From the NCBI GenBank assembly GCA_965212015.1, contig OZ243037.1, positions 608,001 through 672,000 of the forward strand: a DNA stretch of 64,000 bases. Reading direction: 5' to 3'. The notes under the pieces were generated by a model that saw nothing but the letters and a program-made list of their open reading frames with translations, did not search any database and was not told the origin of the DNA. The translations under genes were made by a program, and so were the position numbers. Positions 8,031 to 58,047 of the stretch are shown in pieces; within the stretch, counting starts at the first letter, position 1; each line of letters begins with the position of its first letter. The DNA comes from Cenarchaeum sp. (GTDB lineage Archaea > Thermoproteota > Nitrososphaeria > Nitrososphaerales > Nitrosopumilaceae).

Positions 8031-8033
8031 GTC

Positions 8034-26617: not shown

Positions 26618-26620
26618 GAC

Positions 26621-27196: not shown

Positions 27197-27202
27197 TTAA
27201 CA

Positions 27203-27261: not shown

Positions 27262-27380
27262 CCTACTAGTAGTATACTATAGTCATATAATAACTTTGTT
27301 GGCTATTTTACGTATGATTGCTGATTTCTAGCAATCAAGATCCGTTAGACCTATAAAATCGTAAATATATAGAAAAATCA

Positions 27381-27548: not shown

Positions 27549-27556
27549 CCCCATAA

Positions 27557-29242: not shown

Positions 29243-29370
29243 GCCTTTTATATATGGGAAATCCTTATAGGTTTTTCAGAAAAATTATTTATAGGAGGAC
29301 GTTATTTCAACCCAAAGTGTATTTTTGGCTCAAATACTTTCTTATATAGCAGTAAAATTATTAATTATCG

Positions 29371-30207
29371 ATGAGACATGTTTGCGGTATTTCAGGAGGA
29401 AAGGATTCTAGCGCCCTTGCAGTATATATGCGGGATAAAATACCGGATATGGAATATTTTTTTTGTGATACAGGTGCCGAGCTGCCAGAGACCTATGCAT
29501 ATCTTGCCAAGCTTGAAGTCGTACTTGGTAAGAAAATTGTAAAGCTAAATTCAACTAGAAGTTTTGATCACTATTTTGAAGTATTTCGTGGTACGTTACC
29601 ATCACCACAGATGAGATGGTGTACCAGTATGCTCAAAATAAAGCCACTTGAAGATTGGATAGGTGAAGCTGATGTAATTTCATACGTTGCCATTCGTGCA
29701 GATGAAAAGAGTCGAACAGGTTATGTATCTACAAAACCCAACATCAAGACAATATTTCCATTCATTGATGACGATATTGATCATACCGGTGTTGTAAAAA
29801 TATTGGAAGATGCTGGGATTAATCTACCAGAATATTACAAATGGAGAACACGTTCTGGTTGTTACTTCTGTTTTTTTCAACGAAAAGCAGAATGGGTTGG
29901 TCTTGCGGATAATCATCCGGATTTATTCAAACGAGCTGTTGCGATTGAGCAAAAGATACTAAAAGATGCAGGTGTTGCAGGTGATGCAAATTTTAAATCA
30001 AGTGGTATGAAAGGGAGGCAATATACCTGGTCTCAAGGTGAAACATTAACTGAATTGTTAGAGCGACGTGATGAAATAATGGAACGGCATAAAGATAGTC
30101 TCAAAAAGGCAAAATCAAAAAAGAAAAATTTACCACTAGTGGATGTCTTGGCGGATGCTCTTGATGATGAAGATGAATCTACACCCTGTACAGTTTGCCA
30201 TCTTTAA
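29371..30207 (+). CDS. PAPS reductase family protein (SspD-like)
   Basis: SGGKDS PP-loop, DTG, RWCT..LK, RSGCYFCFFQ, C-terminal CxxC. Confidence 0.85.
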   Translation: MRHVCGISGGKDSSALAVYMRDKIPDMEYFFCDTGAELPETYAYLAKLEVVLGKKIVKLNSTRSFDHYFEVFRGTLPSPQMRWCTSMLKIKPLEDWIGEADVISYVAIRADEKSRTGYVSTKPNIKTIFPFIDDDIDHTGVVKILEDAGINLPEYYKWRTRSGCYFCFFQRKAEWVGLADNHPDLFKRAVAIEQKILKDAGVAGDANFKSSGMKGRQYTWSQGETLTELLERRDEIMERHKDSLKKAKSKKKNLPLVDVLADALDDEDESTPCTVCHL

Positions 30208-30339
30208 GCATCATGTATCACTACGAAATTCATGATTTTTCTATGTAGGTGCCGATTTTGCCAGTTTTATAGCTAAATTCGATTAATTTACCTCGAAATT
30301 TCCCAAATCTATTTAAATTCGATTCTAATTACCACAACG

Positions 30340-35845: not shown

Positions 35846-35936
35846 TTCTATACAGGGGTAATTATATGCTCTTTTTAATCTATTGGCATATCAGGGCTTG
35901 TATTCATGTACAGTCTTCTTGGGAATCTGAGATCTA

Positions 35937-36902
35937 TCAAGTTTTTCTAATTCTCTGGGATCTGGCGCCAGGCACATCTATCCTGTATCTGCCATTTCCC
36001 AGCTTTTCGAACCATTCCAGTAAAACCTGGACGTTTCCAGTCAGCTCCCTCCTACTCGGCACCGGCACGTCCGTACAGTTGTCCTGAATCCATTCCTTGA
36101 TTCTCCCAAAATATGCCTCTGGAGCGATAAACTCGTCAATCTTCCGGATAAATGAATGCTCGAAAAATTGTGTGGATAATTCCTGCAAAAACTCTTCTTT
36201 TGAAAGCCCGCTGCCAATGTCATAGTTTGCCAGATCATGAAATACACATGCTGCAATCTCGGGATCATCAGATGGTAACTGATCCGCAGCAATTCTTTGA
36301 TATCCGGTTACCAGATCATCCACGCTGCGAGTCATCGGCAGTGCAGATATCAGAAAATCATCCTTTTTTGGCGCTGATATGATGTCCTTTAGTTTGACCT
36401 GCTCTGGCAATTCAACCTTGTTGTTCTCGCTCCATTTTTTGAGCTCTTCATACATTGCATCATCGGCCAATCTTGCCTCACGCCGAATTTTTTCAAAGAA
36501 CAATCTGTCCTTGTTAGTCAGATTTTCAATCAGAGTTGCAGCCTCATAGTTGCCATCCGGTAGCAATCCCCTGTGCGAGATGTTTCCTGTGGCAAGAATT
36601 GCGCTGGAAAGATCAACAGAATACACCTTGAGATGCATGTTTTCGCTGATGTATAACGCAATGTTTCTTTCCTTGCAGAATGGATACAAGGATAATTCTG
36701 ATGATCTAAACTGGATATCTTTTGGCTCCCAGGTGGTGACAATCACCACTTTGTTTTCTATTCCATCCAAAAGCTGCATCAGCACCTTGGTCTTGACATA
36801 TGGAACAAAAAGAAATATCGTCTCATCTGGGTCACACTGTTTTAGATATTCCCTGATATGCTCATACAGTGGGCTGTGATAAAGATCGGTCAAATCATAC
36901 AC
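35937..36902 (-). CDS. Phospholipase D-like (HKD) nuclease domain protein
   Basis: VPYV...MHLKVY...ATGNIS..GL...NYE. Confidence 0.75.
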   Translation of the reverse strand: MYDLTDLYHSPLYEHIREYLKQCDPDETIFLFVPYVKTKVLMQLLDGIENKVVIVTTWEPKDIQFRSSELSLYPFCKERNIALYISENMHLKVYSVDLSSAILATGNISHRGLLPDGNYEAATLIENLTNKDRLFFEKIRREARLADDAMYEELKKWSENNKVELPEQVKLKDIISAPKKDDFLISALPMTRSVDDLVTGYQRIAADQLPSDDPEIAACVFHDLANYDIGSGLSKEEFLQELSTQFFEHSFIRKIDEFIAPEAYFGRIKEWIQDNCTDVPVPSRRELTGNVQVLLEWFEKLGNGRYRIDVPGARSQRIRKT

Positions 36903-36903
36903 C

Positions 36904-37677
36904 TCATTTGTAATCCGGAAATCGGTCTTTTATGTATCTGACTTGATCTTTCACGTCTAGCTTTTCCGCCCTTGGGGACGGGCCCCTCACAAAGAATGTC
37001 TTTTCTTTTCCGCAAAGCCATAGGGGACTATTTGCAGGCAATACCTGTATTATGCAGACGGTCTTGTTATCAATAACCCGAAATTTCATCTCTAGTCTGC
37101 TAGTGACAAACACGCGATCCTCCAGTAGATTTTCCAATCTGTCCCTCATGTGATTTGCAAATGAATCCTCATAGTCGGAAAACCCGCCGAATTTTTTATC
37201 CCTGTCCAGACCCACAACAGTACCATTTGACTTGATACCAAGATACACAAATCCTCCCTTTTTGTCGTTCCCAAAAGAGCATATCGCTGTGGCAAATCTC
37301 TCCTGTACGGATTTTTTTATGCCATCTATTGCTTGTTTGCTCTCTGGGGCCTGTTTTTCCAATAATTTCCCTATACTTTCATCATACTGGTAAAATTCCT
37401 TGAATTCATTTTGCTTGTCTTCAGTATCCGGTATCTCTATTTTGCCTAGATCGACAAATCTCGGAGCAGCCGTTGCTTTCTGTACCTTGATGTTTTTGAC
37501 ACGTCCCACCTGCCCGTCCTCCAGCCTGACCTTGATTCCGTGTGGGTGGGTCTCGCTGGAGGTCAGAATCTCGGCCACCACACCGTCAGTCAGTCTGCCC
37601 GTCCCTTGGTTCTCCTTGGTCTCAATCGAGACCACACATCCGCCTTTGATCTGGTTTCTGATCGGAGTCTCCGGCAT
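36904..37677 (-). CDS. YwbE(DUF2196)-like domain fused to Schlafen/AlbA_2 domain
   Basis: TKENQGTGRLTDG...HPHGIKVRLEDGQVGRV plus NEFKE...ICSFGN..GG.VYLGI...G.VVG. Confidence 0.75.
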   Translation of the reverse strand: MPETPIRNQIKGGCVVSIETKENQGTGRLTDGVVAEILTSSETHPHGIKVRLEDGQVGRVKNIKVQKATAAPRFVDLGKIEIPDTEDKQNEFKEFYQYDESIGKLLEKQAPESKQAIDGIKKSVQERFATAICSFGNDKKGGFVYLGIKSNGTVVGLDRDKKFGGFSDYEDSFANHMRDRLENLLEDRVFVTSRLEMKFRVIDNKTVCIIQVLPANSPLWLCGKEKTFFVRGPSPRAEKLDVKDQVRYIKDRFPDYK

Positions 37678-43056: not shown

Positions 43057-44589
43057 CTAGGATTCCCGCGCGGTTGCCCGGCGCACAAGGAACCTGCCGT
43101 CGGAGAGCTCCGTGTCCACCTCCCACCCCTGGGCAGAATGCTCCAGCAGGCTCTGTTCATCCTCGATAATTCGGCTTTCATATGGGGCATCCGCCTTGGC
43201 AGGTCTTGCCGGTATTTCCTTGGGGACCGTGACAGAATCGTTTCGGATCAGGGAAGTCGGATCCATCCCGTACATCTTGGCCTGCTGCCGCCACAGGTTG
43301 AGTAGCATGTCCTTTTTGTTAGCGCCGTCGGCCTTGAGGTCCGTAGCCAGAAACGTCTGACTCTGCGCGTACGCGCGCCTCATGTCCTCCGTCATCTGCT
43401 CTGTGAGCCTGCCCTTGTTGGTGGTGTATCGAGCCTCCATGTCGCCCTTGTGTCCCATAAAGAATTGTCTGTATGCGTGCGTCATGCACCCGTGGCTTTC
43501 GGCCATGAGCATCTGCGTGTCAAAGTATGCCCTCAGGGCGTACGGGCGGATCTTCATCACGCCCCAGATCGTCCTCCGTATGCTCTCCGATATGGCCGGC
43601 GTGGTCAGAAATAATGTGTCCGATTTCTTACGCTGCCCCCTTTCCTGGTATCCATTGTTGAACGTAATGAGCGGCGAGTCCGGTTCCAGTATATCGCCGT
43701 GCGCGATACGCTGCCGCAGATATCCCAAAAGATACTCACATCCCTGCTTTGTCAGGAACGTAAAGTACTTGTTTTTGGTCTTGCTAAGCTGGGCGCGGAC
43801 GACAATCATTGCCGGCATCTTTTCAAACGACACCCTGTCGCCGTCGATGCGCAGTTCCGGCAGATCCGAGAGTTTCAGCCCGTCACCCTTGTCAGACGTG
43901 CCCATCACCTGGGGGCGGATGCCGGAGAATGCCATCATGCCTACGATGAGCTTTGTGCGCGGGGATCCTGCGCCTAGAATCTGATCAAGTTGCTCCTGCG
44001 TGGGGACCTGCTCGTCCTCTATGCTTACCGCAATGCTGGCGTTTCTCACCTTTATTTTGCGCCTTATCTCGATGTGGTTGTATTCAAGCCACGACTTTAT
44101 CGCCTTTATCATCCCCTCTGTGTAGCCCGGCGCGTAATTCTGTTTTTCCATCCACGAGACGTGATCAAGCAGAATGTTCTCCATGTCCATTGGATTGTCG
44201 CGTCCTATGGTAACCAAGTTTGTAGGAGTCTTGTCAACCCTGTGGCAGAACAGATTGAGTCTGCGCAGCCTTACCTTTGAGTTGAGTATGCTAGAGCGCG
44301 CACAGTTTTCATACCAGCGTCTAACGTCATCATCCTTCAATAGTATAACTGGAGCTTGTGTCGTCACCTGATTCCACCGGATGTTATCAAAACGCGTTCC
44401 CCTATTTTTCCTTTTTGTTGTACGATTTTTTTCGTTAGGAATTATATTAGAGGAGTTTTCATGTTGTGTAATAACCGCGCGCTTTTTTTCCGGTTCCCTG
44501 TCAGGGCGCCGTGAGTTTGCACTCTTTATTTGTAGGCGAGGCTTGCAGTCGGCTTTTGAATTTACAGATTTTGTTTTCTGTTTTTTCAT
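43057..44589 (-). CDS. Tyrosine recombinase/integrase 1
   Basis: SGIRP, RPYALRAYFDT, FMGHKG, ARY catalytic residues; probable ATG at 44589 next to the att repeat. Confidence 0.88.
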   Translation of the reverse strand: MKKQKTKSVNSKADCKPRLQIKSANSRRPDREPEKKRAVITQHENSSNIIPNEKNRTTKRKNRGTRFDNIRWNQVTTQAPVILLKDDDVRRWYENCARSSILNSKVRLRRLNLFCHRVDKTPTNLVTIGRDNPMDMENILLDHVSWMEKQNYAPGYTEGMIKAIKSWLEYNHIEIRRKIKVRNASIAVSIEDEQVPTQEQLDQILGAGSPRTKLIVGMMAFSGIRPQVMGTSDKGDGLKLSDLPELRIDGDRVSFEKMPAMIVVRAQLSKTKNKYFTFLTKQGCEYLLGYLRQRIAHGDILEPDSPLITFNNGYQERGQRKKSDTLFLTTPAISESIRRTIWGVMKIRPYALRAYFDTQMLMAESHGCMTHAYRQFFMGHKGDMEARYTTNKGRLTEQMTEDMRRAYAQSQTFLATDLKADGANKKDMLLNLWRQQAKMYGMDPTSLIRNDSVTVPKEIPARPAKADAPYESRIIEDEQSLLEHSAQGWEVDTELSDGRFLVRRATARES

Positions 44590-44599
44590 ATTGAAAGCG

Positions 44600-44613
44600 C
44601 CACTAGACCCGCT
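44600..44613 (+). other. att site (copy of tRNA-Lys 3' end)
   Basis: CCACTAGACCCGCT identical to 20926-20939. Confidence 0.8.
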
Positions 44614-44703
44614 TCCACTGTGGGTTCGGGTCTTTCCCTGGCAAAATGCCCACAAACCGGTATCCGCGGGTGATTAACGCCCCCGCTTTTGCTGTATCGG
44701 CAA

Positions 44704-46024: not shown

Positions 46025-46312
46025 ATGGGCATATTTATAAAAAAAATCCACGGGGCGGAATACCTGTATTTTCTGGCAGGGGATTCCCAGTATTTCCTGG
46101 GAAGAAAGGACGATCTGGAAAACCTGAACATTCAGAATCTGCGCAAGGCTGTGCGGATTGCAGACAGGAACTTTGATAGGATTTTTGTAAAATACATCCG
46201 GGATCTGCTGAAAAATGTCAGGTACATGCCCGATGATGAGAGGGCCCGGTACCTGTCCGCGCGGATTGCAAACTTGGATTCTGCGTTAAGACAGCTCAAA
46301 AATACGCGATAA
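46025..46312 (+). CDS. Small putative DNA-binding protein (possible excisionase)
   Basis: KKIHGAEYLYF...YFLGR beta-hairpin motif; divergent from integrase 2. Confidence 0.55.
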   Translation: MGIFIKKIHGAEYLYFLAGDSQYFLGRKDDLENLNIQNLRKAVRIADRNFDRIFVKYIRDLLKNVRYMPDDERARYLSARIANLDSALRQLKNTR

Positions 46313-46496: not shown

Positions 46497-46587
46497 GCCT
46501 TACTTGTAGGAATCGTAGGAAAAACACATAAAGTATCCCCAAGAATGTAAAGATCACTTGAAAAGTAAGGCAAAAAAGGCATCTCAG

Positions 46588-48474
46588 ATGGCCAAATGTA
46601 CTACAATGCTAAAGTGGTATTTTCCACCAACAGGTGGTGGAGTAACTCAGGGATTTAATGATGGTTCACAAGAATTCTTCCGATCTAATGCATGGGAGCA
46701 GACCATAAGAGAGATAATTCAGAATTCACTTGATGCTGTAGATGATCGAAGAGACGGGCCAGTAAAAATAAACATCTCTGAAATAACGATACCTGCATCA
46801 GAGATAGGAGCCACTGATCTTGCTGGCCACATAAGCAAGGCTTTGGAACGCACTAGAAAACAAGAATCCACCACAGGGAGTAAATTTTACGAAAATGCAT
46901 TGAAGGTTTTAAATCAAAATGAGATCAAAATGCTTGCAATAACTGATACTAACACTACAGGTTTAGTGGATGAAAAATGGGATGCGCTGATATATGATGA
47001 AGGTACATCAAGTAAAGGTGGTATAAATGCAGCAGGAGGAAGTTTTGGCATTGGAAAAAATGCACCATATGTGGTTTCAGATTTAAAAACTGTATGTTAT
47101 TCCACACGATATCTAGGCAAGGGAAGAATTGAAAAGTTTATTGCTCGATGCAAGATTTCTGCACATGAGAATCCCGATGAATCTTCTAAAGAAATGCTAC
47201 AACACATAGGATTTGGAACTAAAACAAAATTAGCAAAAAATATTCGTCCTTTACCAACAGAAGGAAGTGACATTCATCAACTATTTCGTCTTGATGAATA
47301 TGGAAGTGGAATATTTATTATGGGATTTAATCCACAACTAAAAAATTGGATCAAAGTGGCCAAAAAATCTATAGCACATAATTTTTTTGTTGCAATACAT
47401 GAAAAGAAATTAGAAATTTATATAAATTCTGATCCGATAAACTATGAAACATTAGATGGTATATTTGAGGATGATCGTAAAAAAGAACCTACTCGTCACT
47501 ATTATCATATCATCCGTGATGATATTAAGAAAGAAATTGTAGAAGGAGATCTGGGAAAATTTACAGTACAAATAAATATTGATGATGAAGATGCACCAAA
47601 CCAAATTGCATATATAAACCGAAGAGGAATGATGGTAACTGACAAGCGTATTTTCGATGAAAATCCATTTTATACGGCAGTTGGAAAAGGTTGGGCCAAA
47701 TATGCAGTAGTAATTATGTCACATGATGATGCAACAGATATGAAAATACGTATGATGGAGCCGCCTAACCATCAATCAATCGAATACAAGCGCATCAATG
47801 ATCATAAAAAACGAGATTCTATGGAACGACAACTTCGTGTCATAAAAAATAAAATTACTGATATTATTAACAACGCAATTTCCGACAGTAATCATGAACA
47901 TGACATAAATCTATCAGAACTTGCAGACATATTGCCTTTTCCTGATGATTCAGGAAAAGAAGGTATTGAACAAAGTGAAAAAGATCAGTCTCTAGATCAT
48001 CATACTATAGAGTCTGGCACATCATCTCATATCGTAGATGATGATGGATTAGATTCAGGTAAAAAGTTAGGTGGGACCTCAGATACACATGGAAAGAATC
48101 ATAAATCTATTTCTGGTCGCAAAATAAGCAGTAAAGGAACACCAATTTTGCATCGTCAGCGAATTGTGCGCAGCAAGGATATACTCCGTGTTGCATTTAC
48201 ATCACGTCAAAATAATGGAAAACCAGTGTGCTTTGGCATCAAACCTGTAGGTGAAGAAAGAAAAAATGAAATCATGATTCCAATAACTTCGGCCCGTGTG
48301 GAAACACCATCGAATTTTACCATTAAAATGAATAACAATCGTATAACCATGACTCCAAAATATGATGAACGGGTTGTAATGGATCTAAAAATACCTCAAA
48401 CCAAGTCATATACAGGATATGAGATCATTGAAATAGTACAAAACAAAAAACCCTCAAAAGGTAATAAAAAATGA
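46588..48474 (+). CDS. GHKL-type ATPase, uncharacterised family
   Basis: REIIQNSLDA, DTNTTGL, GGSFGIGK. Confidence 0.75.
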   Translation: MAKCTTMLKWYFPPTGGGVTQGFNDGSQEFFRSNAWEQTIREIIQNSLDAVDDRRDGPVKINISEITIPASEIGATDLAGHISKALERTRKQESTTGSKFYENALKVLNQNEIKMLAITDTNTTGLVDEKWDALIYDEGTSSKGGINAAGGSFGIGKNAPYVVSDLKTVCYSTRYLGKGRIEKFIARCKISAHENPDESSKEMLQHIGFGTKTKLAKNIRPLPTEGSDIHQLFRLDEYGSGIFIMGFNPQLKNWIKVAKKSIAHNFFVAIHEKKLEIYINSDPINYETLDGIFEDDRKKEPTRHYYHIIRDDIKKEIVEGDLGKFTVQINIDDEDAPNQIAYINRRGMMVTDKRIFDENPFYTAVGKGWAKYAVVIMSHDDATDMKIRMMEPPNHQSIEYKRINDHKKRDSMERQLRVIKNKITDIINNAISDSNHEHDINLSELADILPFPDDSGKEGIEQSEKDQSLDHHTIESGTSSHIVDDDGLDSGKKLGGTSDTHGKNHKSISGRKISSKGTPILHRQRIVRSKDILRVAFTSRQNNGKPVCFGIKPVGEERKNEIMIPITSARVETPSNFTIKMNNNRITMTPKYDERVVMDLKIPQTKSYTGYEIIEIVQNKKPSKGNKK

Positions 48475-49307
48475 GTCATACGAACTTCTTGCTACCACAT
48501 CCAATAATTAAACCTGGAGGATTTGACTACAATGAAAATTGTCACTTTGACATAGAGATAAAACAGGCCACGACACTTGATGGAAATATCCACATTGAGA
48601 TATCATGTGATCTGTCCAGTTTTACTATAAATGATCTCATAAAGAAAGAAAAAGCAAAATTTTTTATTACTTTAAAATGTGTTAAAACCCATCAAAGAAT
48701 CACACATAGCTTTACAGAAACTTCCATGGTTTGGGATATTCCGATGTCTAACTGTGTCGATAAAATAAACATAACGCCATATGTGGCAACAACTGAGGAA
48801 ATACCAGCATTTTACTCCAAAGAACATGATGATGAAATTCAACAAATGATTCCTGATGGCGTAGATCTTCCGACAGGTGCCATTTTGGCAGTAGGAAAAT
48901 CACACGAAATCACGATTGATGCGATAGAAAAGATCCAAGCTGCCATCAAGATAATCCAAAATAAGGAATTGGAAGTAGGAACTTACGCCATAGACACCAG
49001 TGGCGATTATCTAGACATTCAAATGCATCCTAAAACACAAAACAGCATACGTAATATACACAACCAATCAGTAGAACTTTTGTATCCATCAATTTACCTG
49101 ACTGCCATCGAACAAGCCATACGTGATATGGAAAATTATAAAGATCGCAAATGGGCACAAGCTTTGCACAAAACTCTAGAAAAACACAATATTGAGATTG
49201 ATTATGATAAATTAAAGGAAGAAGCAAATAAGCATGCCCAGACAATACTGAACAAACCATTGGATCGCATCATACAATGGCACAATCGAGAGAATGAATA
49301 TGATTGA
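48471..49307 (+). CDS. Hypothetical protein, translationally coupled
   Basis: 4-bp overlap with ATPase; N-terminal LPHPII. Confidence 0.75.
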   Translation: MSHTNFLLPHPIIKPGGFDYNENCHFDIEIKQATTLDGNIHIEISCDLSSFTINDLIKKEKAKFFITLKCVKTHQRITHSFTETSMVWDIPMSNCVDKINITPYVATTEEIPAFYSKEHDDEIQQMIPDGVDLPTGAILAVGKSHEITIDAIEKIQAAIKIIQNKELEVGTYAIDTSGDYLDIQMHPKTQNSIRNIHNQSVELLYPSIYLTAIEQAIRDMENYKDRKWAQALHKTLEKHNIEIDYDKLKEEANKHAQTILNKPLDRIIQWHNRENEYD

Positions 49308-50919
49308 AAGAGAACCCCTTTACAGATTTACCCATGAAGCATTTGAAATGTTATTCAAGAACTTTGAAAAACATCTTGAACATTACAAGAATCCTGATGC
49401 AGATTTTATCAAACTATTAACAGAGAATGGAATCAATAATTACAAAGAACCAATAATCGCGCATATCATTAATCCAATCAAACTTGAATTGACAGAGGGC
49501 AAACCATCCCATCTAGCAGACATTCAGGCACTCGATTTTTATAATTCCTTTGAAGGCATGACGCCTAGACTTGCGTCAGATCCACGTGTACTGGCATATC
49601 TGAATCATTTTTATTTTCACAAGTATGGCATTGCTCGCTGGCCGATATCTGCAAGCACAAAACCAGAACATATGCGTAGACATTGGCTTACGCGTAGCAC
49701 AGAAAATACTCACATATGGAAATCAAACATTTCGGGCAGAACCTGGTGGATTGCACATATGGCCATCAAGGCAGCAGAGTCTTCGGCCGGCACATTTGAT
49801 GCAAAGCAAGCATTGAAAAAATTTACAGAAGCTCCAGAATATTACCATCGCACCATGGAATATGCCATACTCAAAAATCATACGCTTATGGCAGAATTCA
49901 TCAGAGCATTACACAGGGAGGCAGAGGGTATAAACCGTGATGGATACATAGCCATGGCAAAGGAATTAAACCTGGAGGCTGGTGCAAGGCTAATTGATTC
50001 GCTGGACAGACAATACCTGCGTAAACTAGTACAGCGTGCAGCAGATCGTCAGATGTGCAATCCAAAATCTGTTACAAATCGCAAATATATTCATAATGTG
50101 AAAAAATTCAAAGTGTTGAGTTTGGGAGCTGGAGCACAGTCTACCGTGTTGGCGCTCATGGCAGAAGAGGGATGGAATGGACTTGAAAAACCAGATCTAG
50201 CTATATTTGCAGATACTCAATGGGAACCACCGAATGTATACGAGCACCTAGATTGGTTAGAAAAACAGCTATCGTATAAGGTAATTCGAGTATCTGCAGG
50301 AAACATACGTGAGAACATACTAAACGGTGTCAATTCAGATGGAGACAAATTTATGGACATACCGGCATTTTTAGTAAATCCTGATGGAAGTAAATCCGTG
50401 GCCCGCAGACAATGCACTACGCATTATAAAATAAGACCCATACACAAGGAGCTTAGAAAACACCTCGGCATACCAACCGGTCGACGTGCTCCAAAAGATA
50501 TTCAGGTAGAAATGTGGCTGGGTATTAGTGCAGATGAATCAAATAGAATTAAACCTAGCAGAGATGAATGGATCGACAATCGATATCCACTTATTGAAAA
50601 GGACATGACCCGGGCCAACATATACAATTGGTTTAGTGAGAGGTATCCGGATCGTCGTTTGCCTCGCAGTGCATGCGTAGGATGTCCTTACCACAACAAC
50701 ATGGAGTGGAAATGGATCAAAGAAAACGATCCGGATTCATTTGAGGAAGCAGTCAATGTTGACTGGTCGCTTCGTAATGTTCAAAAGACACGTGGTACAC
50801 TCAAAGGAGATGCGTACTTGCATCACACGCGCAAACAGTTAAACAAAGTGGATTTTAGCAAGACAGAAAATTATGATGACTATATGGCGAGCGAATGTGA
50901 GGGACTCTGTGGTGTCTGA
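49294..50919 (+). CDS. DUF6339-like domain fused to PP-loop/PAPS-reductase-like Cys-rich domain
   Basis: N-terminal TPRLASDPRVLAYL.H...RW...NISGRTWW; C-terminal LSLGAGAQST, ADTQWE, QCT..YK, GISADE, SACVGCPY, ECEGLCG. Confidence 0.7.
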   Translation: MNMIEREPLYRFTHEAFEMLFKNFEKHLEHYKNPDADFIKLLTENGINNYKEPIIAHIINPIKLELTEGKPSHLADIQALDFYNSFEGMTPRLASDPRVLAYLNHFYFHKYGIARWPISASTKPEHMRRHWLTRSTENTHIWKSNISGRTWWIAHMAIKAAESSAGTFDAKQALKKFTEAPEYYHRTMEYAILKNHTLMAEFIRALHREAEGINRDGYIAMAKELNLEAGARLIDSLDRQYLRKLVQRAADRQMCNPKSVTNRKYIHNVKKFKVLSLGAGAQSTVLALMAEEGWNGLEKPDLAIFADTQWEPPNVYEHLDWLEKQLSYKVIRVSAGNIRENILNGVNSDGDKFMDIPAFLVNPDGSKSVARRQCTTHYKIRPIHKELRKHLGIPTGRRAPKDIQVEMWLGISADESNRIKPSRDEWIDNRYPLIEKDMTRANIYNWFSERYPDRRLPRSACVGCPYHNNMEWKWIKENDPDSFEEAVNVDWSLRNVQKTRGTLKGDAYLHHTRKQLNKVDFSKTENYDDYMASECEGLCGV

Positions 50920-51241
50920 AATCGTATCACAACTAATGTTGAAAAAAATTCCTTTCGACTATGATTTTCACAATCATTTAAACAATTCTGGTGGATTGTA
51001 TTGCTTTTGGTTGCGCAATAGTTGTCTTTATGTGGGCATGAGTGAGGATCTAAAGAGGCGTATTGCACAACATAGCCATAAGGAAGATAATCCGGAATTG
51101 ATCAAATATTTCAGAACATGTCCAGATGAAATCGAAATATCCATAGTGTATCTAGATCTTACTGCAAACAAGCTCAGAAACATCGAATCAAGAGCCATAC
51201 TAGAATTACATCCAGTGGCCAATAGGCAAGGAATTTCTTAG
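50912..51241 (+). CDS. GIY-YIG nuclease family protein
   Basis: GLYCFW...LYVGMS..LKRRIAQH...IE..AI...HP..N. Confidence 0.8.
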   Translation: MSEIVSQLMLKKIPFDYDFHNHLNNSGGLYCFWLRNSCLYVGMSEDLKRRIAQHSHKEDNPELIKYFRTCPDEIEISIVYLDLTANKLRNIESRAILELHPVANRQGIS

Positions 51242-51289
51242 GTATGATCATGCCATTTGAATATCTTTTACTTTCCATGGAGATATGTC

Positions 51290-52549
51290 ATGACTAGCTC
51301 ATATCCTGCACTACGAGGAAAATTTGGAAAGACAGATTATTTTTTGACTGCCATGCCAGTAGGAGAATTGATCAGTCGTGTCACATTCCCAATAGATCTT
51401 CCAGGCTGGGAGAACCGCTCCATAGAGGAGAGATTTCAGCGAAAGATCGATATAAGGAGAATTAGACGTGACATTGCTCCATATTTTGCAAATGATGAGA
51501 ATAGATTTTCTGGTGCACTGGTACTGGCAGTACTAAATTCTGATAAAATGATACTAGAATCATTACAAGATATTGCAGGAGTCAGTAATAATATCCCAAA
51601 ATTGTATAATAGTGTTATCGGTGATATGGGATTCCTGATAATGTCGGGAGATGAAGTTTTTGTTCCACTTGACGGACAGCATAGGGCTAAGGCATTCAAA
51701 CTTGCAATAGAAGGCTATAAGGATAGTAGTAAGGTAGCCCCATTAATACGGCCTAATCCAGATCTGGCAAAGGACAAAGTCGCTGTGATATTGGTTCGTT
51801 TTGACGACTTGATGTCCAGATATATATTCAACAAGATAAACCGATACGCAAAGCCTACCACCAAGGCTGACAAATTGATTACTGACGATGATAATGCCGT
51901 AGCAGTAATAACAAGGCAGATGATAAGTGACGGTGTCATTCCGGAACGTCTAGTGAACATAGACACAAACTCACTTAGCAAAACAATGCACGAATTTACA
52001 ACACTTTCTACGTTTTATGATGCCAACATGTACCTTCTGTCTGGATTACAGGTTGCCAGTATAGCAAATCCAGAAAAAATGTCCAAACCTGAAAGGGAGA
52101 TGCGATTAACAGAAGTAAGCGCAGAATGGAAGCGTTTGATATCTGGAATTGGTTTGTGGAAAAAAGCCCTCAAGGATCCATCCATAAAAGGGGATGACAT
52201 ACGCAAAAAGATCCGCAAGGAATACTTGCTAGGTAAACCCATCGGTCAGCTCTCGCTGGTAGGCGGATACGCCTTTACATGTCAGAGGCACAGGAATGAG
52301 GTGGATAGAGATCTCCTAATAAGACGACTAGATAAGATAGATTGGAGGGTGCGCACAAAGATGTGGTCAGGAGTGCTGATCCGTCAAAACGGCAGGATCA
52401 TGTCGGGAAGACCGACAGCAAAAAATGCCATCAAGTTCATAGCTTATCTCATAGGTGCTGAGCTGACAAAACTAGAGAAGGACAGCATTTTAGGATGGAT
52501 TTATGGCGACAGATGGAAAAAGAATGTTCTTCCAGAACCGATCAAATGA
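51290..52549 (+). CDS. dndB: DndB/DGQHR domain protein
   Basis: FQRKID..RI..IAPY, RFSGAL, LDGQHR, IFNKINRYAK. Confidence 0.82.
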   Translation: MTSSYPALRGKFGKTDYFLTAMPVGELISRVTFPIDLPGWENRSIEERFQRKIDIRRIRRDIAPYFANDENRFSGALVLAVLNSDKMILESLQDIAGVSNNIPKLYNSVIGDMGFLIMSGDEVFVPLDGQHRAKAFKLAIEGYKDSSKVAPLIRPNPDLAKDKVAVILVRFDDLMSRYIFNKINRYAKPTTKADKLITDDDNAVAVITRQMISDGVIPERLVNIDTNSLSKTMHEFTTLSTFYDANMYLLSGLQVASIANPEKMSKPEREMRLTEVSAEWKRLISGIGLWKKALKDPSIKGDDIRKKIRKEYLLGKPIGQLSLVGGYAFTCQRHRNEVDRDLLIRRLDKIDWRVRTKMWSGVLIRQNGRIMSGRPTAKNAIKFIAYLIGAELTKLEKDSILGWIYGDRWKKNVLPEPIK

Positions 52550-52615: not shown

Positions 52616-54037
52616 TTATGGCAAAGGAATTGGGTTGAATCCGTACTCATTACAAATACCATAATGGTTTATGATGACAGGTTCCCATCCCCTACCTATA
52701 TCTAATTGATCTAAAGAATTTTTTAACTCTTCTATCTGATCATAATACAGTGCATTTCTATCGATCAAGCTATCCAGAAATTTTTCCTCTGGTAACGAAT
52801 TGCTTTTTTTACAATTGCATTTTTGACACGATAAAACCAAATTCCATGGATGATCGTCATAAATATAGGACCATGGAATAAAGTGATCCACATGTGTAGA
52901 ATCATATTTTAGTTTGTTTTTACAGTAAAAACATTGATCAACATATTCAGAATATATTTTTCTGTATTCTGTCAATGACCCTCTTACTGGATCATTATGT
53001 TCTAGCTTTGCAACCAATCTAGGTAATGAATGGTTAATTTTTTCCAAGAATTTTGCCCACTGTGCAAGAACTACTTGGGATAATATCCTGTTGTTTTTAC
53101 GGAAAAAACTAAAAGCTTCTGGCTTTAGATATAGCATTTTTGCAGAGTTATCATAATTATAAAATATCCTGATATCTTCTGAATCATTACTAGTTGTGAT
53201 ATTTTGAAATGCAGGAATCACAATTGATTTTTTTCCTCTGATTGTACCAAATACGTTTTTGAGTATTTCTCCTTCCGCATTTTTGATGTCTTTTTTCTTA
53301 AGAAGTTCAAAATCAGCTGGAGGATTATTCCCAAAAACACTGTTTATTGCTTTTATTACATTTGGTTTTCCGCTTGTCCTAAAATCCTGTTTCATTTTGA
53401 ATTTGTATTCTTGATGCCAGTAATATTTTAGAAATTTACTTGCAAAATATTGATATGGTATTTCATGTATTTGTTTCTCTTCCGTAGTATCTTTGCAATA
53501 ATCTAACAGTGATTTAGCAAGGGTAAATTTGTACGTATTAGATTTGGGCGAATCTGCAATTATGGATAAAAATGCTCGTTTCAGATCTTTTTCTGAAACA
53601 TCTGATTCTATATACGGGTTTGTATCTTGTATGAATCTCTTTTCACCATTAGTCATTACCGGTTTTTTAATTGGTTTATTTGATAGCTTGTCAAGTCGGA
53701 ATATTCCAAAATGTTTTGAACTGTTCCAATCTATCAGCTTTTTGTTGCTTCGTAGCTTGGAAATCTCTTGATCTATGATATTTGGAAATTTATTAGATGT
53801 ACGATATGATCCCCACATACTAGGATCTAATTTTAATTCTCTTCCTACTGATGATATCAGATCAGTTCTGCTATGCCAAATTTTCTCATTTTGATGCTTT
53901 AATTGTAATTTATCTCCTGACTTGTCATCACGATGATTTGTAATGGTAGGTATGGTCTTGCCTTTTTGGTTTAGAACATATAGGACTAGCTCAGATGTGA
54001 ATTTACGAGGTATTTTACCAGATCGACTTATTGCCAT
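52616..54037 (-). CDS. HNH endonuclease with TYKF(A/T)L domain
   Basis: CFYC...HVDHFIPWS...WNLVLSCQKCNCKKSN. Confidence 0.85.
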   Translation of the reverse strand: MAISRSGKIPRKFTSELVLYVLNQKGKTIPTITNHRDDKSGDKLQLKHQNEKIWHSRTDLISSVGRELKLDPSMWGSYRTSNKFPNIIDQEISKLRSNKKLIDWNSSKHFGIFRLDKLSNKPIKKPVMTNGEKRFIQDTNPYIESDVSEKDLKRAFLSIIADSPKSNTYKFTLAKSLLDYCKDTTEEKQIHEIPYQYFASKFLKYYWHQEYKFKMKQDFRTSGKPNVIKAINSVFGNNPPADFELLKKKDIKNAEGEILKNVFGTIRGKKSIVIPAFQNITTSNDSEDIRIFYNYDNSAKMLYLKPEAFSFFRKNNRILSQVVLAQWAKFLEKINHSLPRLVAKLEHNDPVRGSLTEYRKIYSEYVDQCFYCKNKLKYDSTHVDHFIPWSYIYDDHPWNLVLSCQKCNCKKSNSLPEEKFLDSLIDRNALYYDQIEELKNSLDQLDIGRGWEPVIINHYGICNEYGFNPIPLP

Positions 54038-54259
54038 ATTAATGCATATGATTTACTTGAATTTAAATATTGCAAAGATGAATGTTGGGATTTGATCATT
54101 TTTATATATGGGGTGGTCAGCCATCATGATCCATAGCTTTTTCAGTTTTCTTGTATGGACACGCAATTAAATTGATTTATCCTGATAAAAATCAACCATC
54201 CTATAACACAAAGCAATTAGTGTTAAAATATTACAGCATAGGATACAGAATCCATGTGT

Positions 54260-54649
54260 TTATCTGATTTTTACAACACCTGTCTTTTCTGAATAGAAAT
54301 AAAACTCAATATCATCAAGCCATCTGTCAAATTCACGTATATACAGATCTGCCATTCTTCTATCCTCTCCAATTACAAATAATTTTTTCCATGGTTTGTT
54401 ATCGTATTTTTCCAATAAACCCATAAGCCAAACATATTCATTCAAAACAGAAAATTTTGCAGAAGGTCTATTTCCTCCACTTGTCATAGTATAATGTTTG
54501 ATATCTCCGACGATTTTGTGTTCTAGATTTATTAGATCAAAATTTTTGAATTTACCATTTATTGCAATTTTAACACTTGATAATTGTACATTCATGAGTT
54601 TTTCCATGGCTTTTCTTGCCTTGCTCTCGTATTCTTGCCAAGAATCCAT
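54260..54649 (-). CDS. Putative PD-(D/E)xK-fold protein
   Basis: QEYE...NFDL...VGDIKHY. Confidence 0.55.
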   Translation of the reverse strand: MDSWQEYESKARKAMEKLMNVQLSSVKIAINGKFKNFDLINLEHKIVGDIKHYTMTSGGNRPSAKFSVLNEYVWLMGLLEKYDNKPWKKLFVIGEDRRMADLYIREFDRWLDDIEFYFYSEKTGVVKIR

Positions 54650-54729
54650 CCTAAAATATTATGATCTAGATTAGTTATAAATGATCAGATTTGCAAAATA
54701 TGGTGTTTTTGATTTTTATCTAATATCTA

Positions 54730-54900
54730 TTAACAATTACGCGGAATATCGGACGCATCGGAGGAATCGTTGATGAATTTTACATCACTGCTAGTATCCA
54801 CAAGTTGCAGGGCAGAGGTCGGTCCTGACGAGGTTTCCTTATATTTTGGAAGCATCTCCTCGATTTCCTCCATGGTGTATTCCGTCCTCGTTTCTGCCAT
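54730..54900 (-). CDS. Small acidic hypothetical protein (56 aa)
   Basis: Manual translation MAETRTEYTMEEIEEMLPKY...; co-oriented between protease and nuclease genes. Confidence 0.35.
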   Translation of the reverse strand: MAETRTEYTMEEIEEMLPKYKETSSGPTSALQLVDTSSDVKFINDSSDASDIPRNC

Positions 54901-54953
54901 GCCTGATTCCTATTTGTCTGGTTTTTATATATACTTGTTGGTGAAAAATCACG

Positions 54954-55973
54954 TTATTCCTCATCATTTTTCATCCATTTCTCACTCATGACCGACTGTT
55001 GGTAACCTATCTTCGCAATACCCGTCTTGGCATCACATAGTTGAACACGATTGATTTTAAGACGTACAGAGTATGTATGAGTCAAGTCCTTGCTTTCCAG
55101 GACACATTTGTGTAGTGTGGTAATTATTTCATTCTTGGCACCTAGTTCAGCTTCAAGGCTGTAAGGTGTATCCAAATTTAGCAATTTGTTATATTCTCCA
55201 TACAGCTTCATAATATTCTCCATTAATTCTTCTGGTACGTCTATTATGCTCAATCCTAAATCATCCTTTGCTTCCCTTCTGCCTATCAGATAATTATGAG
55301 AGAATCTTTCCTCTATGAGAATTTTTACAATGGTGTCTATTTTCTTCTCATCGGTCATATGTTGTTTGAGCAGGGTTTTTGACAGGAACCTAATCTCGTT
55401 TCTTGATCTATTCACGGCACCAAGAACCAGCGGATGGAGTCCGCCTGCCAACACGGCCATGATCTTGGTCAGCTCCTCCTCCGAATCAGTTTTTGCCTCT
55501 TTTTTTGCAAGATCAAAAAAACTTACAACATCTTCCACATTGACTGGCATGTTGACCTGTATTGTGGGATTTTGTGGGTGTGGGAATTTTGGTCCCAGTG
55601 GATGTGTCAGGGAGGGATCCACGGGGCCGAGTTGCCCAATCTTTGACATGATTATTGAATTGGCCCCAAGGGTCATCAGAGTTCCGGTGCTTAGGCACTT
55701 GAATGGGACTATCATTCCATATTCCTTACAATACTCCCTTATCAAATTCACAATCCCATATCCAGATATTGTAATTCCGCCCGTAGTGTAAATCAATAGG
55801 TTGATTTTTTGAGTAGATTTTATCTTGTCCAAATGCTTATAGATGAACGGAATCACATCCGATGAAATTTTTGCCTCTAATCCTTTTCGGTCTCCAGTCA
55901 TGTAAACTAGAATCTTGGAATTTGTCTGTTCTTCAATCTTTTTGATCAGTTCCAGACGATTTTGTCGTCCCAT
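54954..55973 (-). CDS. ClpP/SDH-class serine protease
   Basis: TTGG, CLSTGTLMTLG, LGPVDP, SHNYLI. Confidence 0.82.
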   Translation of the reverse strand: MGRQNRLELIKKIEEQTNSKILVYMTGDRKGLEAKISSDVIPFIYKHLDKIKSTQKINLLIYTTGGITISGYGIVNLIREYCKEYGMIVPFKCLSTGTLMTLGANSIIMSKIGQLGPVDPSLTHPLGPKFPHPQNPTIQVNMPVNVEDVVSFFDLAKKEAKTDSEEELTKIMAVLAGGLHPLVLGAVNRSRNEIRFLSKTLLKQHMTDEKKIDTIVKILIEERFSHNYLIGRREAKDDLGLSIIDVPEELMENIMKLYGEYNKLLNLDTPYSLEAELGAKNEIITTLHKCVLESKDLTHTYSVRLKINRVQLCDAKTGIAKIGYQQSVMSEKWMKNDEE

Positions 55974-56090
55974 TAGCAGGATTAATAATAGTCGCTTATA
56001 AAATGTTTAGAAAAAAAATGGCAGGAATATTGTAAGTGTTCCGATCGCTTTCTGCCGTCATTACCGGCCCGCGGTATAAAATGCCCGGAT

Positions 56091-56197
56091 TTGCCTGATT
56101 TTTGCCAATGGATAAATAACAAGAATGACGAACCAAAAGGAGTGGTTTTATTGGATTCTATCGATCAGATCTCAGGATGCTTCGATGAGATTAAATG
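56091..56197 (+). pseudogene. Remnant of DUF3800-like gene 3' end
   Basis: WINNKNDEPKGVVLLD vs WANNRNKEPAGVISID of 26621-27196. Confidence 0.65.
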
Positions 56198-56266
56198 CCG
56201 TACCCACATGAGCCCGAGGATCGCCAACTGGACAGACTCCCGTTGGCCCAAGGGATTCGCGTACGG
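56198..56266. ncRNA. Structured element B (homolog of A)
   Basis: CCGTAC/GTACGG closing stem, ACATGAGCCC, CCAAC/GTTGG hairpin, GGGATTC. Confidence 0.6.
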
Positions 56267-56467
56267 TTATACATGGTAGGGTCACCCAACATAATAAAGT
56301 TTATGGGAAATCTACCCGTTAACAGATCACCATGACCACAGCTTGTATCATATGCCGTACTGTATGGCATCAATCTAGTCTGAATCCACACGTCATAAAA
56401 TATGGTTTTTTTGTATGTATGATTTAATCATGGAGGGCATATCTATTCTATTTCTAAAATAATGTGT

Positions 56468-56528
56468 CCGTATCCACTACTAGCCCAAGATCGCCGACAA
56501 CCATGTCGTCCTTGAGATCCGGTTACGG
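56468..56528. ncRNA. Divergent structured element D
   Basis: CCGTATCC/GGTTACGG stem, AGCCCAAGATCG, CGACA/TGTCG hairpin. Confidence 0.4.
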
Positions 56529-56609
56529 GTAACTATACTGCATCGAACTAGTATATTTGGATTTATGTAAAAATCCGCCCAAATTAGGGCTGTCAGGCCC
56601 GCCAAATCC

Positions 56610-56678
56610 GGTATGGCAAATGTCTGAAAAACTCTGATTCACACCACGAATTCACGGGTTCAAATCCCGTCCCTACGC
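56610..56678 (+). pseudogene. Degenerate tRNA-like remnant
   Basis: Perfect T arm ACGGG-TTCAAAT-CCCGT; other arms pair poorly. Confidence 0.35.
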
Positions 56679-56864
56679 GGTTATTGAAATATTGAGAATT
56701 AAAAGTATCCTGATGAGTCGGGCATGGCAGCAGATCTGAACGGCCCTTGGGTTTTAATTCGGATGACGGCATCTCCGGTAGATCTAGTCCGAACCTGCCA
56801 GGATCATCTGCAAACATTTGACCAAAAACAAATGTGGTGGGAGGTGAGGAATGACTATGGCAGA

Positions 56865-57941
56865 TTACAGTGTAAAGTTTGTAGCAGACTCATAGTTCTT
56901 GTTAAGATCCGGAAATTGTGCAAACAGCTCGTCCAGATATTCCTGCGTATCGTTAAACGGCCTTAGCAGCTCCAGATGGTTTGCATCCGGATAGTGCTCC
57001 AGCAAAAACTCGCCAAACTCCTTTATCGGAGGTGATCCGTTTCTCTCTTCAGGCGGGATGTAATTCGGCGAGTTTAGTATGTCGGTTGAGTTGTATTGCT
57101 TGCCTACATATACCGGTGCATTTTCAAGCAGCTCATCAGAAAGACCACCCACAATATCTCCCTCATATACTCTTGCCGTGCCGTTGTCAATTATAAAAGT
57201 ATAATTCGGTCCGACATTGTGGTAAAATAATATGGAAAGATATCCTACCGGAGGAAATCTGGGATCAGGCTCGTTGATTACCACCGGAATTTGTAGGTAA
57301 AGTTTTTGTGTATTGTTAAATGGCAGATCAATTCTGCCTTCAGATGTGACGACAGGCGGCCTATAATCATAATGCGTATAGTCTTCTGCCCTGAATAAAT
57401 CCTCGTGATTAATCGAGATAAACGTCGAATATGAGGCATGTATGGCATCACCGTACGGATACGTCCGTTCATAGTCGTCATATTCCAGCCTCTCCTCATA
57501 GTCATCATAACCGGCATCCTTGTCCGGTACCACATATTCGTATTCGAGATCGATTAAAAATTCCTCGCCTATGTTGACTATTTTTGGTGCCTTGAATGTG
57601 TACTTGGGCCAGTACTCATATTTGAAAACAGGACCCATCATCATTTCAAATCCAATCGCCTCTGATGATTCATCCAGATTGGATGTCATTATCGTCTCTC
57701 CGACTGTCATGTTCTTGTCTTGGATTGTGTAATCATCAGTCTGTACATTTCGTTCATCCAAAATGGGCACACCCCATCCCCTCTCCAAGAGCTTGGCCAG
57801 CGTATCATCAAAGACGCAGGCCAGCTTTCCATGCGGTGATTCTATCAGATTTTTATCCTCGCTGCATTGTATGGCAAATGCGTCGGGTAGAGCAATCATG
57901 CCGGCTGTCAATACTGCCAGAATTCCTAGGATTTTGAACAT
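56865..57941 (-). CDS. Secreted/surface acidic protein
   Basis: Signal peptide MFKILGILAVLTAGMIALPDAFA; C...ACV...LLERGWG motif common in thaumarchaeal exported proteins. Confidence 0.75.
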   Translation of the reverse strand: MFKILGILAVLTAGMIALPDAFAIQCSEDKNLIESPHGKLACVFDDTLAKLLERGWGVPILDERNVQTDDYTIQDKNMTVGETIMTSNLDESSEAIGFEMMMGPVFKYEYWPKYTFKAPKIVNIGEEFLIDLEYEYVVPDKDAGYDDYEERLEYDDYERTYPYGDAIHASYSTFISINHEDLFRAEDYTHYDYRPPVVTSEGRIDLPFNNTQKLYLQIPVVINEPDPRFPPVGYLSILFYHNVGPNYTFIIDNGTARVYEGDIVGGLSDELLENAPVYVGKQYNSTDILNSPNYIPPEERNGSPPIKEFGEFLLEHYPDANHLELLRPFNDTQEYLDELFAQFPDLNKNYESATNFTL

Positions 57942-58047
57942 TGTTATTGAATATGGCAAAATCATACTAATAAATGAATCATACAGATTCCACAAAGTTA
58001 TCTAATCGAGTCGCGGATCTCCGATTTCAAAATCATCGTGACTCCCG

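Follow-up and report, generated by a model that had tools for sequence, protein, structure and literature searches.

The window analysed here, a stretch of 64,000 nt of Cenarchaeum sp. DNA (contig OZ243037.1, positions 608,001 to 672,000), carries an operon of five genes, g1 to g5, in which the three components of a catalogued candidate defence system, PDC-M33, are joined to a PP-loop enzyme related to SspD and followed by genes for a putative GIY-YIG nuclease and a DndB-like protein. A preliminary description had read the operon as one new system of DNA modification and restriction. We confirm the five co-oriented, plus-strand open reading frames (ORFs) and their close packing, with overlaps throughout g1-g4 (4 nt for g1/g2, 14 nt for g2/g3 and 47 nt for g3/g4) and a gap of 15 nt between g4 and g5. 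The start of the operon had been set at 46588; this is indeed an in-frame ATG, codon 11 of g1, but the g1 ORF begins at a TTG at 46558. The genes, and the two halves of g3, are as follows.

46558-48474, plus strand: g1, 638 amino acids (aa), TTG start; matches PDC-M33A, probable GHKL ATPase
48471-49307, plus strand: g2, 278 aa; matches PDC-M33B, predicted adaptor
49294-50919, plus strand: g3, 541 aa; fusion protein
49294-50079, plus strand: N-terminal half of g3 (aa 1-262); DUF6339 / PDC-M33C, all-helical
50080-50919, plus strand: C-terminal half of g3 (aa 263-541); PP-loop domain of adenine-nucleotide alpha-hydrolase type, related to SspD
50873-51241, plus strand: g4, 122 aa; putative small GIY-YIG-type nuclease
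51257-52549, plus strand: g5, 430 aa; DGQHR-domain, DndB-like protein

PADLOC identifies g1 as PDC-M33A (1.7e-84, positions 17-615 of the 627 in the model), g2 as PDC-M33B (1.6e-32) and the N-terminal half of g3 as PDC-M33C (2.2e-25), in that order, in three adjacent, overlapping and co-oriented genes. PDC-M33 is a computational PADLOC candidate, and our literature search found no paper naming PDC-M33 or DUF6339. The novelty claimed for the operon thus holds in one respect, in that no named, characterised system in PADLOC matches it in full, but not in the other, since the core is matched by PDC-M33 A, B and C. The core was already listed; what is new is the combination of the catalogued trio with an SspD-related PP-loop enzyme. 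Elsewhere, g1-g3 have no NCBIfam matches, and PDB sequence searches with g1, with g2 and with a profile of full-length g3 gave no match at cut-offs of E <= 1 or 10.

The preliminary description called g1 a GHKL ATPase, on a firmer footing than we find. Because g1 has no match in Pfam or NCBIfam, the label comes from several weak, convergent lines of evidence. The N-box (E52, N56, D59), G1 (D130, G135) and G2 (G161, G164, G166, K167) positions are kept in 30 homologues. Alignment of the g1 family with a true HATPase_c_3 family by hhalign pairs these motifs, yet with E 0.016 and a probability of 2.9%, and the single match of the g1 profile in the PDB is a weak one, to the N-box of topoisomerase VI-B (E 0.15). 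Four of the 30 homologues match SACS and one matches HATPase_c_3 weakly, and the named Atlas clusters nearest to g1 are HATPase_c_3/SACS (scores 0.89-0.91). Taken together, g1 is a probable, not a proven, ATPase of the GHKL type (Bergerat fold), and its long C-terminal part is uncharacterised. Domains of helix-turn-helix (HTH) type (Sigma70_r4, KORA, HTH_23) are also present in four of the 30 homologues (alignment from loci L001-L073), which hints at DNA binding or autoregulation by g1 in some lineages.

The AlphaFold model of g2 (mean pLDDT 90.2) consists of beta-sandwich domains followed by a C-terminal helical bundle. Its PDB fold search returned generic Ig/FnIII-like matches only (TMq <= 0.27), and so we draw no function from the fold. 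The DUF6339 half of g3, matched by the Pfam model at residues 81-247 (1.5e-20), is helical in the g3 model with pLDDT of about 90 or more, and none of the PDB matches listed for that model covers it. When g2 was modelled together with residues 1-262 of g3, the complex scored 0.87, as compared with 0.00 for the best of three controls. It thereby passed a mark that, in a benchmark, was attained by 116 of 157 solved complexes and by 2 of 215 mismatched pairs. Contacts agreed to at least 98% between runs and the partner pLDDT was 79; since neither family has a solved relative, the pass is not the recall of a known complex. This supports, but does not show, binding of g2 to the DUF6339 half of g3, and g2 is thus predicted to be an adaptor. 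A "shorter" search for unfused DUF6339 proteins gave four matches, a count that is uninformative, as the method demands common 5-residue words.

The C-terminal half of g3 belongs to an uncharacterised 'phage PAPS-reductase-like' family. The PADLOC SspD model matches residues 273-493 (2.1e-18, 65 bits), and BLASTP aligns this half with the SspD encoded at 29371 in the same window (E 4e-12, 23% identity); the Pfam model PAPS_reduct (PF01507) gives 22.3 bits over residues 274-398, against a cut-off of 22.5. These matches point to the kinship with sulfur-type modification enzymes that had been suggested earlier. It had also been said that g3 differs clearly from the SGGKDS enzyme at 29371; this is borne out, and the latter scores 364.7 bits (9.2e-110) on the same SspD model. 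The two proteins nevertheless have RxCT, RSxCxxC and C-terminal Cys motifs in common. Among 57 homologues of g3, the loop SLGAGxQS (SLGAGAQS in the window) and residues C374, C461, C464, C535 and C539 are invariant, in line with the fusion of a helical domain to a Cys-bearing PP-loop domain as first described, and three of these five cysteines align with cysteines of SspD. They may carry an Fe-S cluster, as the preliminary description proposed, or a catalytic persulfide. The g3 model (pLDDT 90.6, pTM 0.79) has a helical N-terminal half and an alpha/beta C-terminal half, and Foldseek matches it to GMP synthetase, LarE (4Fe-4S), PAPS/APS reductases (TMt 0.46-0.54), NcsA and TtuA. The Foldseek probability is 1.00 to PAPS/APS reductases, LarE and GMP synthetase, which places the domain in the adenine-nucleotide alpha-hydrolase fold. 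The only solved SspD homologue is chain C ('PptA') of PDB entry 21fy, which the window's SspD matches at E 1.6e-9; the same entry is the best, if weak, PDB sequence match of the g3 PP-loop family (E 0.02), and a literature search found no accessible paper on 'PptA'.

For g4, the GIY-YIG label given earlier stands on a narrower basis than was implied: the protein reaches 22.4 bits on the Pfam GIY-YIG model, just under the cut-off of 22.6, but a homologue in locus L029 passes with 26.6 bits. Across 12 sequences of the family, G41, Y43, Y53-V54-G55, R63, H67, N73, E105 and N117 are invariant, so that the GIY...YIG motifs and the conserved Arg, Glu and Asn are all present. We regard g4 as a putative small GIY-YIG-type nuclease with its catalytic residues kept. 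The assignment of g5 to the DGQHR/DndB type is borne out by Pfam DndB (4.3e-36; 125.1 bits, cut-off 29.1) and NCBIfam DGQHR (TIGR03187; 83.9 bits, cut-off 58.85), and the motif DGQHR itself can be read in the protein sequence. The protein falls below the DndB equivalog cut-off (TIGR03233; 86.7 vs 328 bits), and is best described as a DGQHR-domain protein, DndB-like and of ParB/Srx type. As stated earlier, the operon has neither a methyltransferase nor DndCDE: Pfam, PADLOC and NCBIfam gave no match to a methyltransferase, DndC, DndD or DndE in g1-g5.

The fusion of DUF6339 to the PP-loop domain recurs in 1925 proteins (E <= 0.001). The 120 that were listed are 503-567 aa long with at least 92% coverage, and their best name is 'DUF6339 family protein'. 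A genome scan with PP-loop patterns matched at least 600 stretches, of which at least 561 were confirmed, and the best 80 of the 561 make up the set of loci used below; they come largely from metagenome-assembled genomes (MAGs) of a few phyla. All 80 loci contain the PP-loop gene. The g1 and DUF6339 genes occur in 39 each, and these are identical sets, so that g1 is present in 39 of 39 DUF6339 loci; for g2, phmmer gives 34 loci and clustering 38. Given this constancy of g1 and the number of fusion proteins, the arrangement is far beyond chance, and the idea of an operon with conserved synteny is upheld. Gene order is kept in archaea and in four or more bacterial phyla. Other genes are less regular. 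The DndB-like gene (g5) lies downstream of the PP-loop gene in 15 loci and the GIY-YIG gene (g4) directly downstream of it in 11; an SspE-like gene is present in seven loci and SspA, the desulfurase, in one (within 10 kb), and SspB and SspC are in none.

Three architectures can be distinguished. In architecture A, g1 and g2 precede DUF6339 and the PP-loop domain, which are mostly fused; they are split into adjacent genes in L047, L064, L066, L068, L071 and L073. Within L064, at 920-8301, the split-type trio occurs twice in tandem and the PP-loop gene is separate. Architecture B (about 21 loci) begins with a lone PP-loop protein of ~285 aa, followed by a superfamily 2 (SF2) helicase, a HATPase_c_3 GHKL ATPase and a PLD nuclease. 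In architecture C (seven loci), a lone PP-loop protein is followed by GIY-YIG and DndB-like genes. The exact type seen in the window, architecture A with GIY-YIG and DndB, is confined among the 80 loci to Nitrososphaerota (L001, L002, L003, L029). Genes linked to phosphorothioate (PT) modification also adjoin the trio in places. In L008, L014, L016 and L018, a homologue of PbeA (1e-169 to 3e-199) abuts it, together with an ABC ATPase resembling PbeC/DndD and a small uncharacterised ORF; no DndC, SspD, DndA or DndE was found among the 30 of 72 ORFs scanned in these four loci. GmrSD-type/SspE-like genes (clusters C8 and C10) lie downstream of the trio in 13 loci.

For the PP-loop domain, a quick maximum-likelihood tree of 82 rows, with the window's SspD as its root, recovers architecture C as one clade (7/7, SH-aLRT 99) and architecture B as another (20 rows and a further partial locus, support 100, five phyla), and the fused A forms fall within a clade of 33 rows (support 98). 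The window sits in an archaeal clade of six rows (support 99), beside a Cenarchaeum MAG, and every one of the operon's closest relatives is from Nitrososphaerota. Mapping the architecture labels on the tree takes 12 changes, against a mean of 49.1 for shuffled labels, and none of 200 shuffles was as low. The tree therefore shows clustering and the movement of modules as units. The last two genes illustrate this. The g5 protein of the window is nearly as close to the DndB-like proteins of architecture C (1e-132) as to archaeal ones (6e-149), and yet the PP-loop domains of the window and of architecture C lie in different clades. Similar DndB-like proteins are thus found next to different PP-loop enzymes, and throughout the 80 loci the GIY-YIG and DndB pair is always directly downstream of this enzyme, whatever its clade. 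The pair accordingly behaves as a separate cassette that attaches downstream of the PP-loop enzyme.

The modules are also separable on mobile elements. On the plasmid side, g1 matches 27 plasmids, as compared with just two phage records. Ten of the plasmid contexts, from ten genera, were viewed and scored with profiles from our own alignments. The g1 profile matches in 10/10 and the g2 profile in 8/10; the g3 profile matches in 9/10, in each case through its N-terminal half only (up to position 264 of 540) in a stand-alone protein, and the PP-loop profile matches in 0/10. In 8/10 of these loci an annotated DNA methyltransferase (Dcm or N6 types) lies within 5 kb of PDC-M33, and in four of the eight no restriction enzyme is annotated beside the methyltransferase. 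With the PP-loop enzyme absent and a methyltransferase so often present in the ten loci, it is suggested that the PDC-M33 trio pairs with interchangeable modification enzymes. A conserved ORF of ~77 aa precedes g1 in several of the plasmid loci (L081-L091; those of L082, L085, L086 and L089 form one cluster), and no relative of it was detectable upstream of the window's g1. An ORF at 46025-46312, upstream of g1 in the window, was considered as a sixth gene and dropped: an upstream ORF is kept among a few plasmid loci, and it is unrelated to the window's.

Conversely, the PP-loop half of g3 matches 207 plasmids (111 from Agrobacterium), in none of which the DUF6339 half is covered. On one plasmid, the lone gene lies directly behind a gene for an ArdC-like zincin, near a ParB-domain gene and traG; on phage-like plasmids it adjoins methylases. 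The same half matches 76 phage genomes at 29-43% identity, 51 of them over at least 80% of the domain and often under the annotation PAPS reductase, and in the three phage contexts viewed the gene lies within a replication and recombination module. According to a 2024 phage paper, the role of the phage homologues is open and they 'deserve further investigation' (PMC11437467). On a phage-like Mesorhizobium plasmid (L092, 5662-6981), a 439-aa 'DNA cytosine methyltransferase' matches residues 212-541 of g3; as most of this protein is PP-loop domain, its annotation is probably misleading. We conclude that the operon is modular and not the single unit first proposed, given that PDC-M33 lacks the PP-loop domain in 10/10 plasmids, that the PP-loop enzyme stands alone in phages and plasmids, and that the cassette follows lone PP-loop genes in seven loci.

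The window also contains a complete SspABCD system (20864-32223, measured from the tRNA gene that directly precedes it), 25 kb from g1-g5:

20864-20938: tRNA-Lys(TTT)
21160: SspA, cysteine desulfurase
22323: SspB
23273: SspC
26621: uncharacterised ORF of 191 aa
27557, minus strand: PT-DNA-type HNH
29371: SspD, with canonical SGGKDS
30340: GmrSD/SspE-like gene

Flanking this system on the minus strand (32483-36902) are genes for an SF2 helicase (32483), a GHKL ATPase (MzaB-like, 34109) and a PLD protein (DrmC-like, 35937), which are homologues of the trio in architecture B (6e-59, 1e-30 and 4e-11, respectively). This helicase-GHKL-PLD trio is a candidate for an unnamed restriction module directed at sulfur-type marks. 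Its identification as SspFGH was rejected on description, since SspF is reported with a Walker A motif and SspH as FtsK-like (PMC8092258). The same paper reports that ~84% of sspBCD clusters have no adjacent SspE or SspFGH (PMC8092258).

Around the operon (46-56 kb) GC content is 35-40%, as opposed to ~55% at the ends of the window; the operon was therefore probably acquired horizontally. Genes for a GTP cyclohydrolase III and for an AAA protein resembling RFC lie in the flanks and, like the Nitrososphaerota kinship of the operon, would fit a thaumarchaeal genome. Convergent with it, at 52616-57995 on the minus strand, are genes for a 473-aa HNH protein, a 129-aa ORF without matches, a ClpP-like serine protease of SDH type and a WING-49-domain protein. 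A 257-aa protein with a YwbE/DUF2196 domain and a Schlafen AlbA_2 domain is encoded at 36904-37677 on the minus strand. An exact 14-nt copy of the 3' end of tRNA-Lys lies at 44600-44613, inside the N-terminus of a minus-strand ORF (43057-44655) with a weak XerA-like recombinase match, and may be the remnant of an attachment site. As a border of an island this repeat was rejected: the copy at 44600 is the sole one of 14 nt and the match is not extendable.

How might such an operon work? We favour a reading as a defence system linked to DNA modification, with the PP-loop domain as the marker, and consider the chances of this to be about even. The operon would be a composite of modification-restriction type, made up of three separable modules: the PDC-M33 trio, the C-terminal half of g3, and the GIY-YIG plus DGQHR pair. 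The PP-loop domain would adenylylate a DNA phosphate and then exchange oxygen for sulfur, the sulfur arriving as a persulfide from a cysteine desulfurase, either a housekeeping enzyme or the neighbouring SspA. Host DNA would thereby be marked, most likely with PT. Among marks, PT comes first because of the kinship with SspD and the PT-linked neighbours, and tdpC is a precedent for PT synthesis by one enzyme (PMC12914056); taken by itself, the claim that the mark is PT is possible, though we would not count on it. DUF6339 and g2 would tether the PP-loop enzyme to the GHKL ATPase, which may clamp or scan DNA using ATP. Unmarked DNA would be attacked, with GIY-YIG as the sole recognisable nuclease, and an anti-phage function could follow from this; the DndB-like protein may tune or target the modification. 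PDC-M33 would then be one such attacking or reading module, which has methyltransferases for partners at other loci and, in this operon, is linked by the fusion at DUF6339 to the PP-loop enzyme. The PP-loop enzyme would be the marking activity, alone in mobile elements and accompanied by differing attack modules in cells. Its partner swapping, between PDC-M33, the helicase-GHKL-PLD trio and the GIY-YIG plus DndB cassette, is typical of a modification enzyme.

Several observations weigh against this reading. The loop of the PP-loop domain is SLGAGxQS and not the SGGxDS of SspD and DndC. In a weak profile match (E 0.066) it pairs with the loop SSSFGIQAAV of Vibrio CysH, a non-hydrolysing PAPS-reductase loop, through G-x-Q-[SA]; ATP-dependent adenylation is therefore not assured. 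According to the BREX-4 paper, a P-loop/ABC ATPase (SspC, DndD or BrxC) is essential for PT in Dnd, Ssp and BREX-4, and the operon has no match to one, nor to the SspB nickase; SspB and SspC are absent from all 80 loci, and the desulfurase is nearby in a single one. The GHKL assignment of g1 is made at motif level only, as the low hhalign probability indicates. The plasmid methyltransferases could equally well be ordinary neighbours in a defence island, and four of the eight have their own annotated restriction enzyme. If PDC-M33 attacks unmarked DNA, stand-alone trios would need some other protective mark. One caveat to the survey itself is that the loci were chosen by the PP-loop and come largely from MAGs in a few phyla, so that the counts are no unbiased census; likewise, related sequences share architecture labels, so that the tree speaks for clustering and is not proof of co-evolution. 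Both PDC-M33 and the system as a whole are candidates known from computation.

It is also possible, if unlikely, that the system is of this kind and that its PP-loop domain installs a mark other than PT (base thiolation, or another adenylate-dependent substitution), or acts on a pre-adenylated sulfur compound or DNA end without hydrolysing ATP. The CysH-like loop would suit such a role, as would the non-PT enzymes among its structural neighbours (GMP synthetase, LarE and the tRNA thiolases) and the absence of SspB and SspC/DndD partners. The C-terminal ECEGxCG of g3 resembles the ECG(L/I)H catalytic Cys motif of PAPS reductases, and the function of the homologues is, as noted above, regarded as open. 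Against a non-PT mark, the closest profile is that of SspD, with no match to DndC or BrxP, and the Cys motifs are common to SspD. The neighbours likewise point to PT: Pbe genes, GmrSD/SspE-like genes, and a helicase-GHKL-PLD trio of the sort that also flanks SspABCD.

A different view of the domain would make it an effector or sensor of PDC-M33, which might for instance modify or block the DNA of invaders, or use up a nucleotide or cofactor, so that interference, abortive or direct, would need no self/non-self marks. Defence systems often join variable effector domains to a conserved core, and the ten plasmid trios do exist without the PP-loop domain; its other partner sets contain obvious nucleases (PLD, GIY-YIG), with which it might act jointly. 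However, in phages and conjugative plasmids the lone enzyme lies by replication genes, methylases and ArdC-like genes, a setting that fits self-protection better than an effector aimed at invaders. Its characterised relatives SspD, DndC and BrxP, moreover, all act in PT modification, as far as the sources consulted go. We consider the effector role distinctly unlikely.

The preliminary description proposed a single new modification system, supplied with sulfur by the desulfurase at 21160 and with a restriction arm made up of the GHKL ATPase, GIY-YIG and the HNH that lies convergent at 52616. In its favour, the genes concerned all fall within the same low-GC parts of the window. The HNH, however, has a homologue in 1 of the 80 loci, and there in another position, which speaks against it as a part of the system. 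The desulfurase fails as a dedicated partner in the same way, as it is SspA, at the head of the separate and complete SspABCD operon 25 kb off; a supply of sulfur from this or a housekeeping enzyme is possible, purely by conjecture. Since, in addition, g1-g3 are a catalogued candidate and g4-g5 an independent cassette, the proposal seems very unlikely. Finally, defence islands pile up unrelated systems, and this window has Ssp, the helicase-GHKL-PLD trio, HNH genes and more, each module of the operon being found alone elsewhere; yet a chance assembly, in which PDC-M33, a stray gene of PAPS-reductase-like type and a DndB/GIY-YIG pair would be functionally uncoupled, is highly improbable in the face of a single polypeptide for DUF6339 and the PP-loop in 1925 proteins, overlapping genes, an order kept in archaea and at least four bacterial phyla, and a GIY-YIG and DndB pair always directly after the PP-loop enzyme.

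The favoured reading, of the PP-loop domain as marker, can be extended, in a form that we think is probably too bold. The SspD-related PAPS-reductase-like enzymes may be autonomous, single-protein DNA modifiers with a sulfur mark, either PT made without a P-loop ATPase or nickase or something chemically new. GHKL-g2-DUF6339 might then be a new class of restriction machine that reads modifications and takes either cytosine methyltransferases or this enzyme as interchangeable partners, and the lone enzyme of phages and conjugative plasmids an anti-restriction disguise. The family is widespread, as the counts of at least 561 confirmed genomic stretches, 207 plasmids and 76 phages indicate, and is annotated as 'PAPS reductase' or 'hypothetical' only. 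The fusion and the partner swapping offer a handle on the function of the PAPS-reductase-like proteins of phages and plasmids, on the nature of PDC-M33, and on the restriction partners of sulfur-type marks, including the helicase-GHKL-PLD trio beside SspABCD. They suggest that microbes, plasmids and phages have a means of marking their DNA that is both new and widespread.

In comparison with known systems, the operon draws on several and coincides with none in full. It resembles PDC-M33 in that g1, g2 and the N-terminal half of g3 match A, B and C in order, as do the trios on ten plasmids, and differs in that its C component continues into an SspD-like PP-loop domain of 280 aa, with GIY-YIG and DndB-like genes after it, none of which occur in the plasmid trios. 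With SspABCD-SspE it has in common the PP-loop fold, the RxCT, RSxCxxC and C-terminal Cys motifs, and the SspE/GmrSD-like genes after the trio in 13 loci; it departs from SspABCD in the 23% identity to SspD, in SLGAGAQS for SGGKDS, in the location of SspA, SspB and SspC outside g1-g5, and in an ATPase partner that is of GHKL and not SspC type. Four systems for the phosphorothioation of DNA are named in PMC12914056 (Dnd, Ssp, Tdp and BREX-4), where PT is presented as the sole known backbone modification. To DndBCDE and DndCDEA-PbeABCD the operon is linked by a DGQHR protein, by a likely modifier of the PAPS-reductase superfamily, and by PbeA/PbeC-like genes in four loci; unlike DndBCDE, its g5 lies under the DndB equivalog cut-off and it has no match to DndC, DndD or DndE. 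TdpABC and BREX type 4 are also compact systems with a PAPS-reductase-type protein at their centre, and, according to the same source, tdpC alone is enough for PT synthesis and BrxP plus BrxC make PT (PMC12914056). PADLOC nevertheless finds no BrxP, BrxC, BrxZ or BrxL in g1-g5, g3 included, whereas the window's SspD does match BrxP (3.3e-13). There is a likeness, too, to the PAPS-reductase-like proteins that phages, plasmids and archaeal viruses carry, which the C-terminal half of g3 matches in 76 phage records and 207 plasmids; these are lone proteins of ~270 aa in replication or anti-restriction regions, whereas in g3 the same enzyme is fused to DUF6339 within a defence-type operon.

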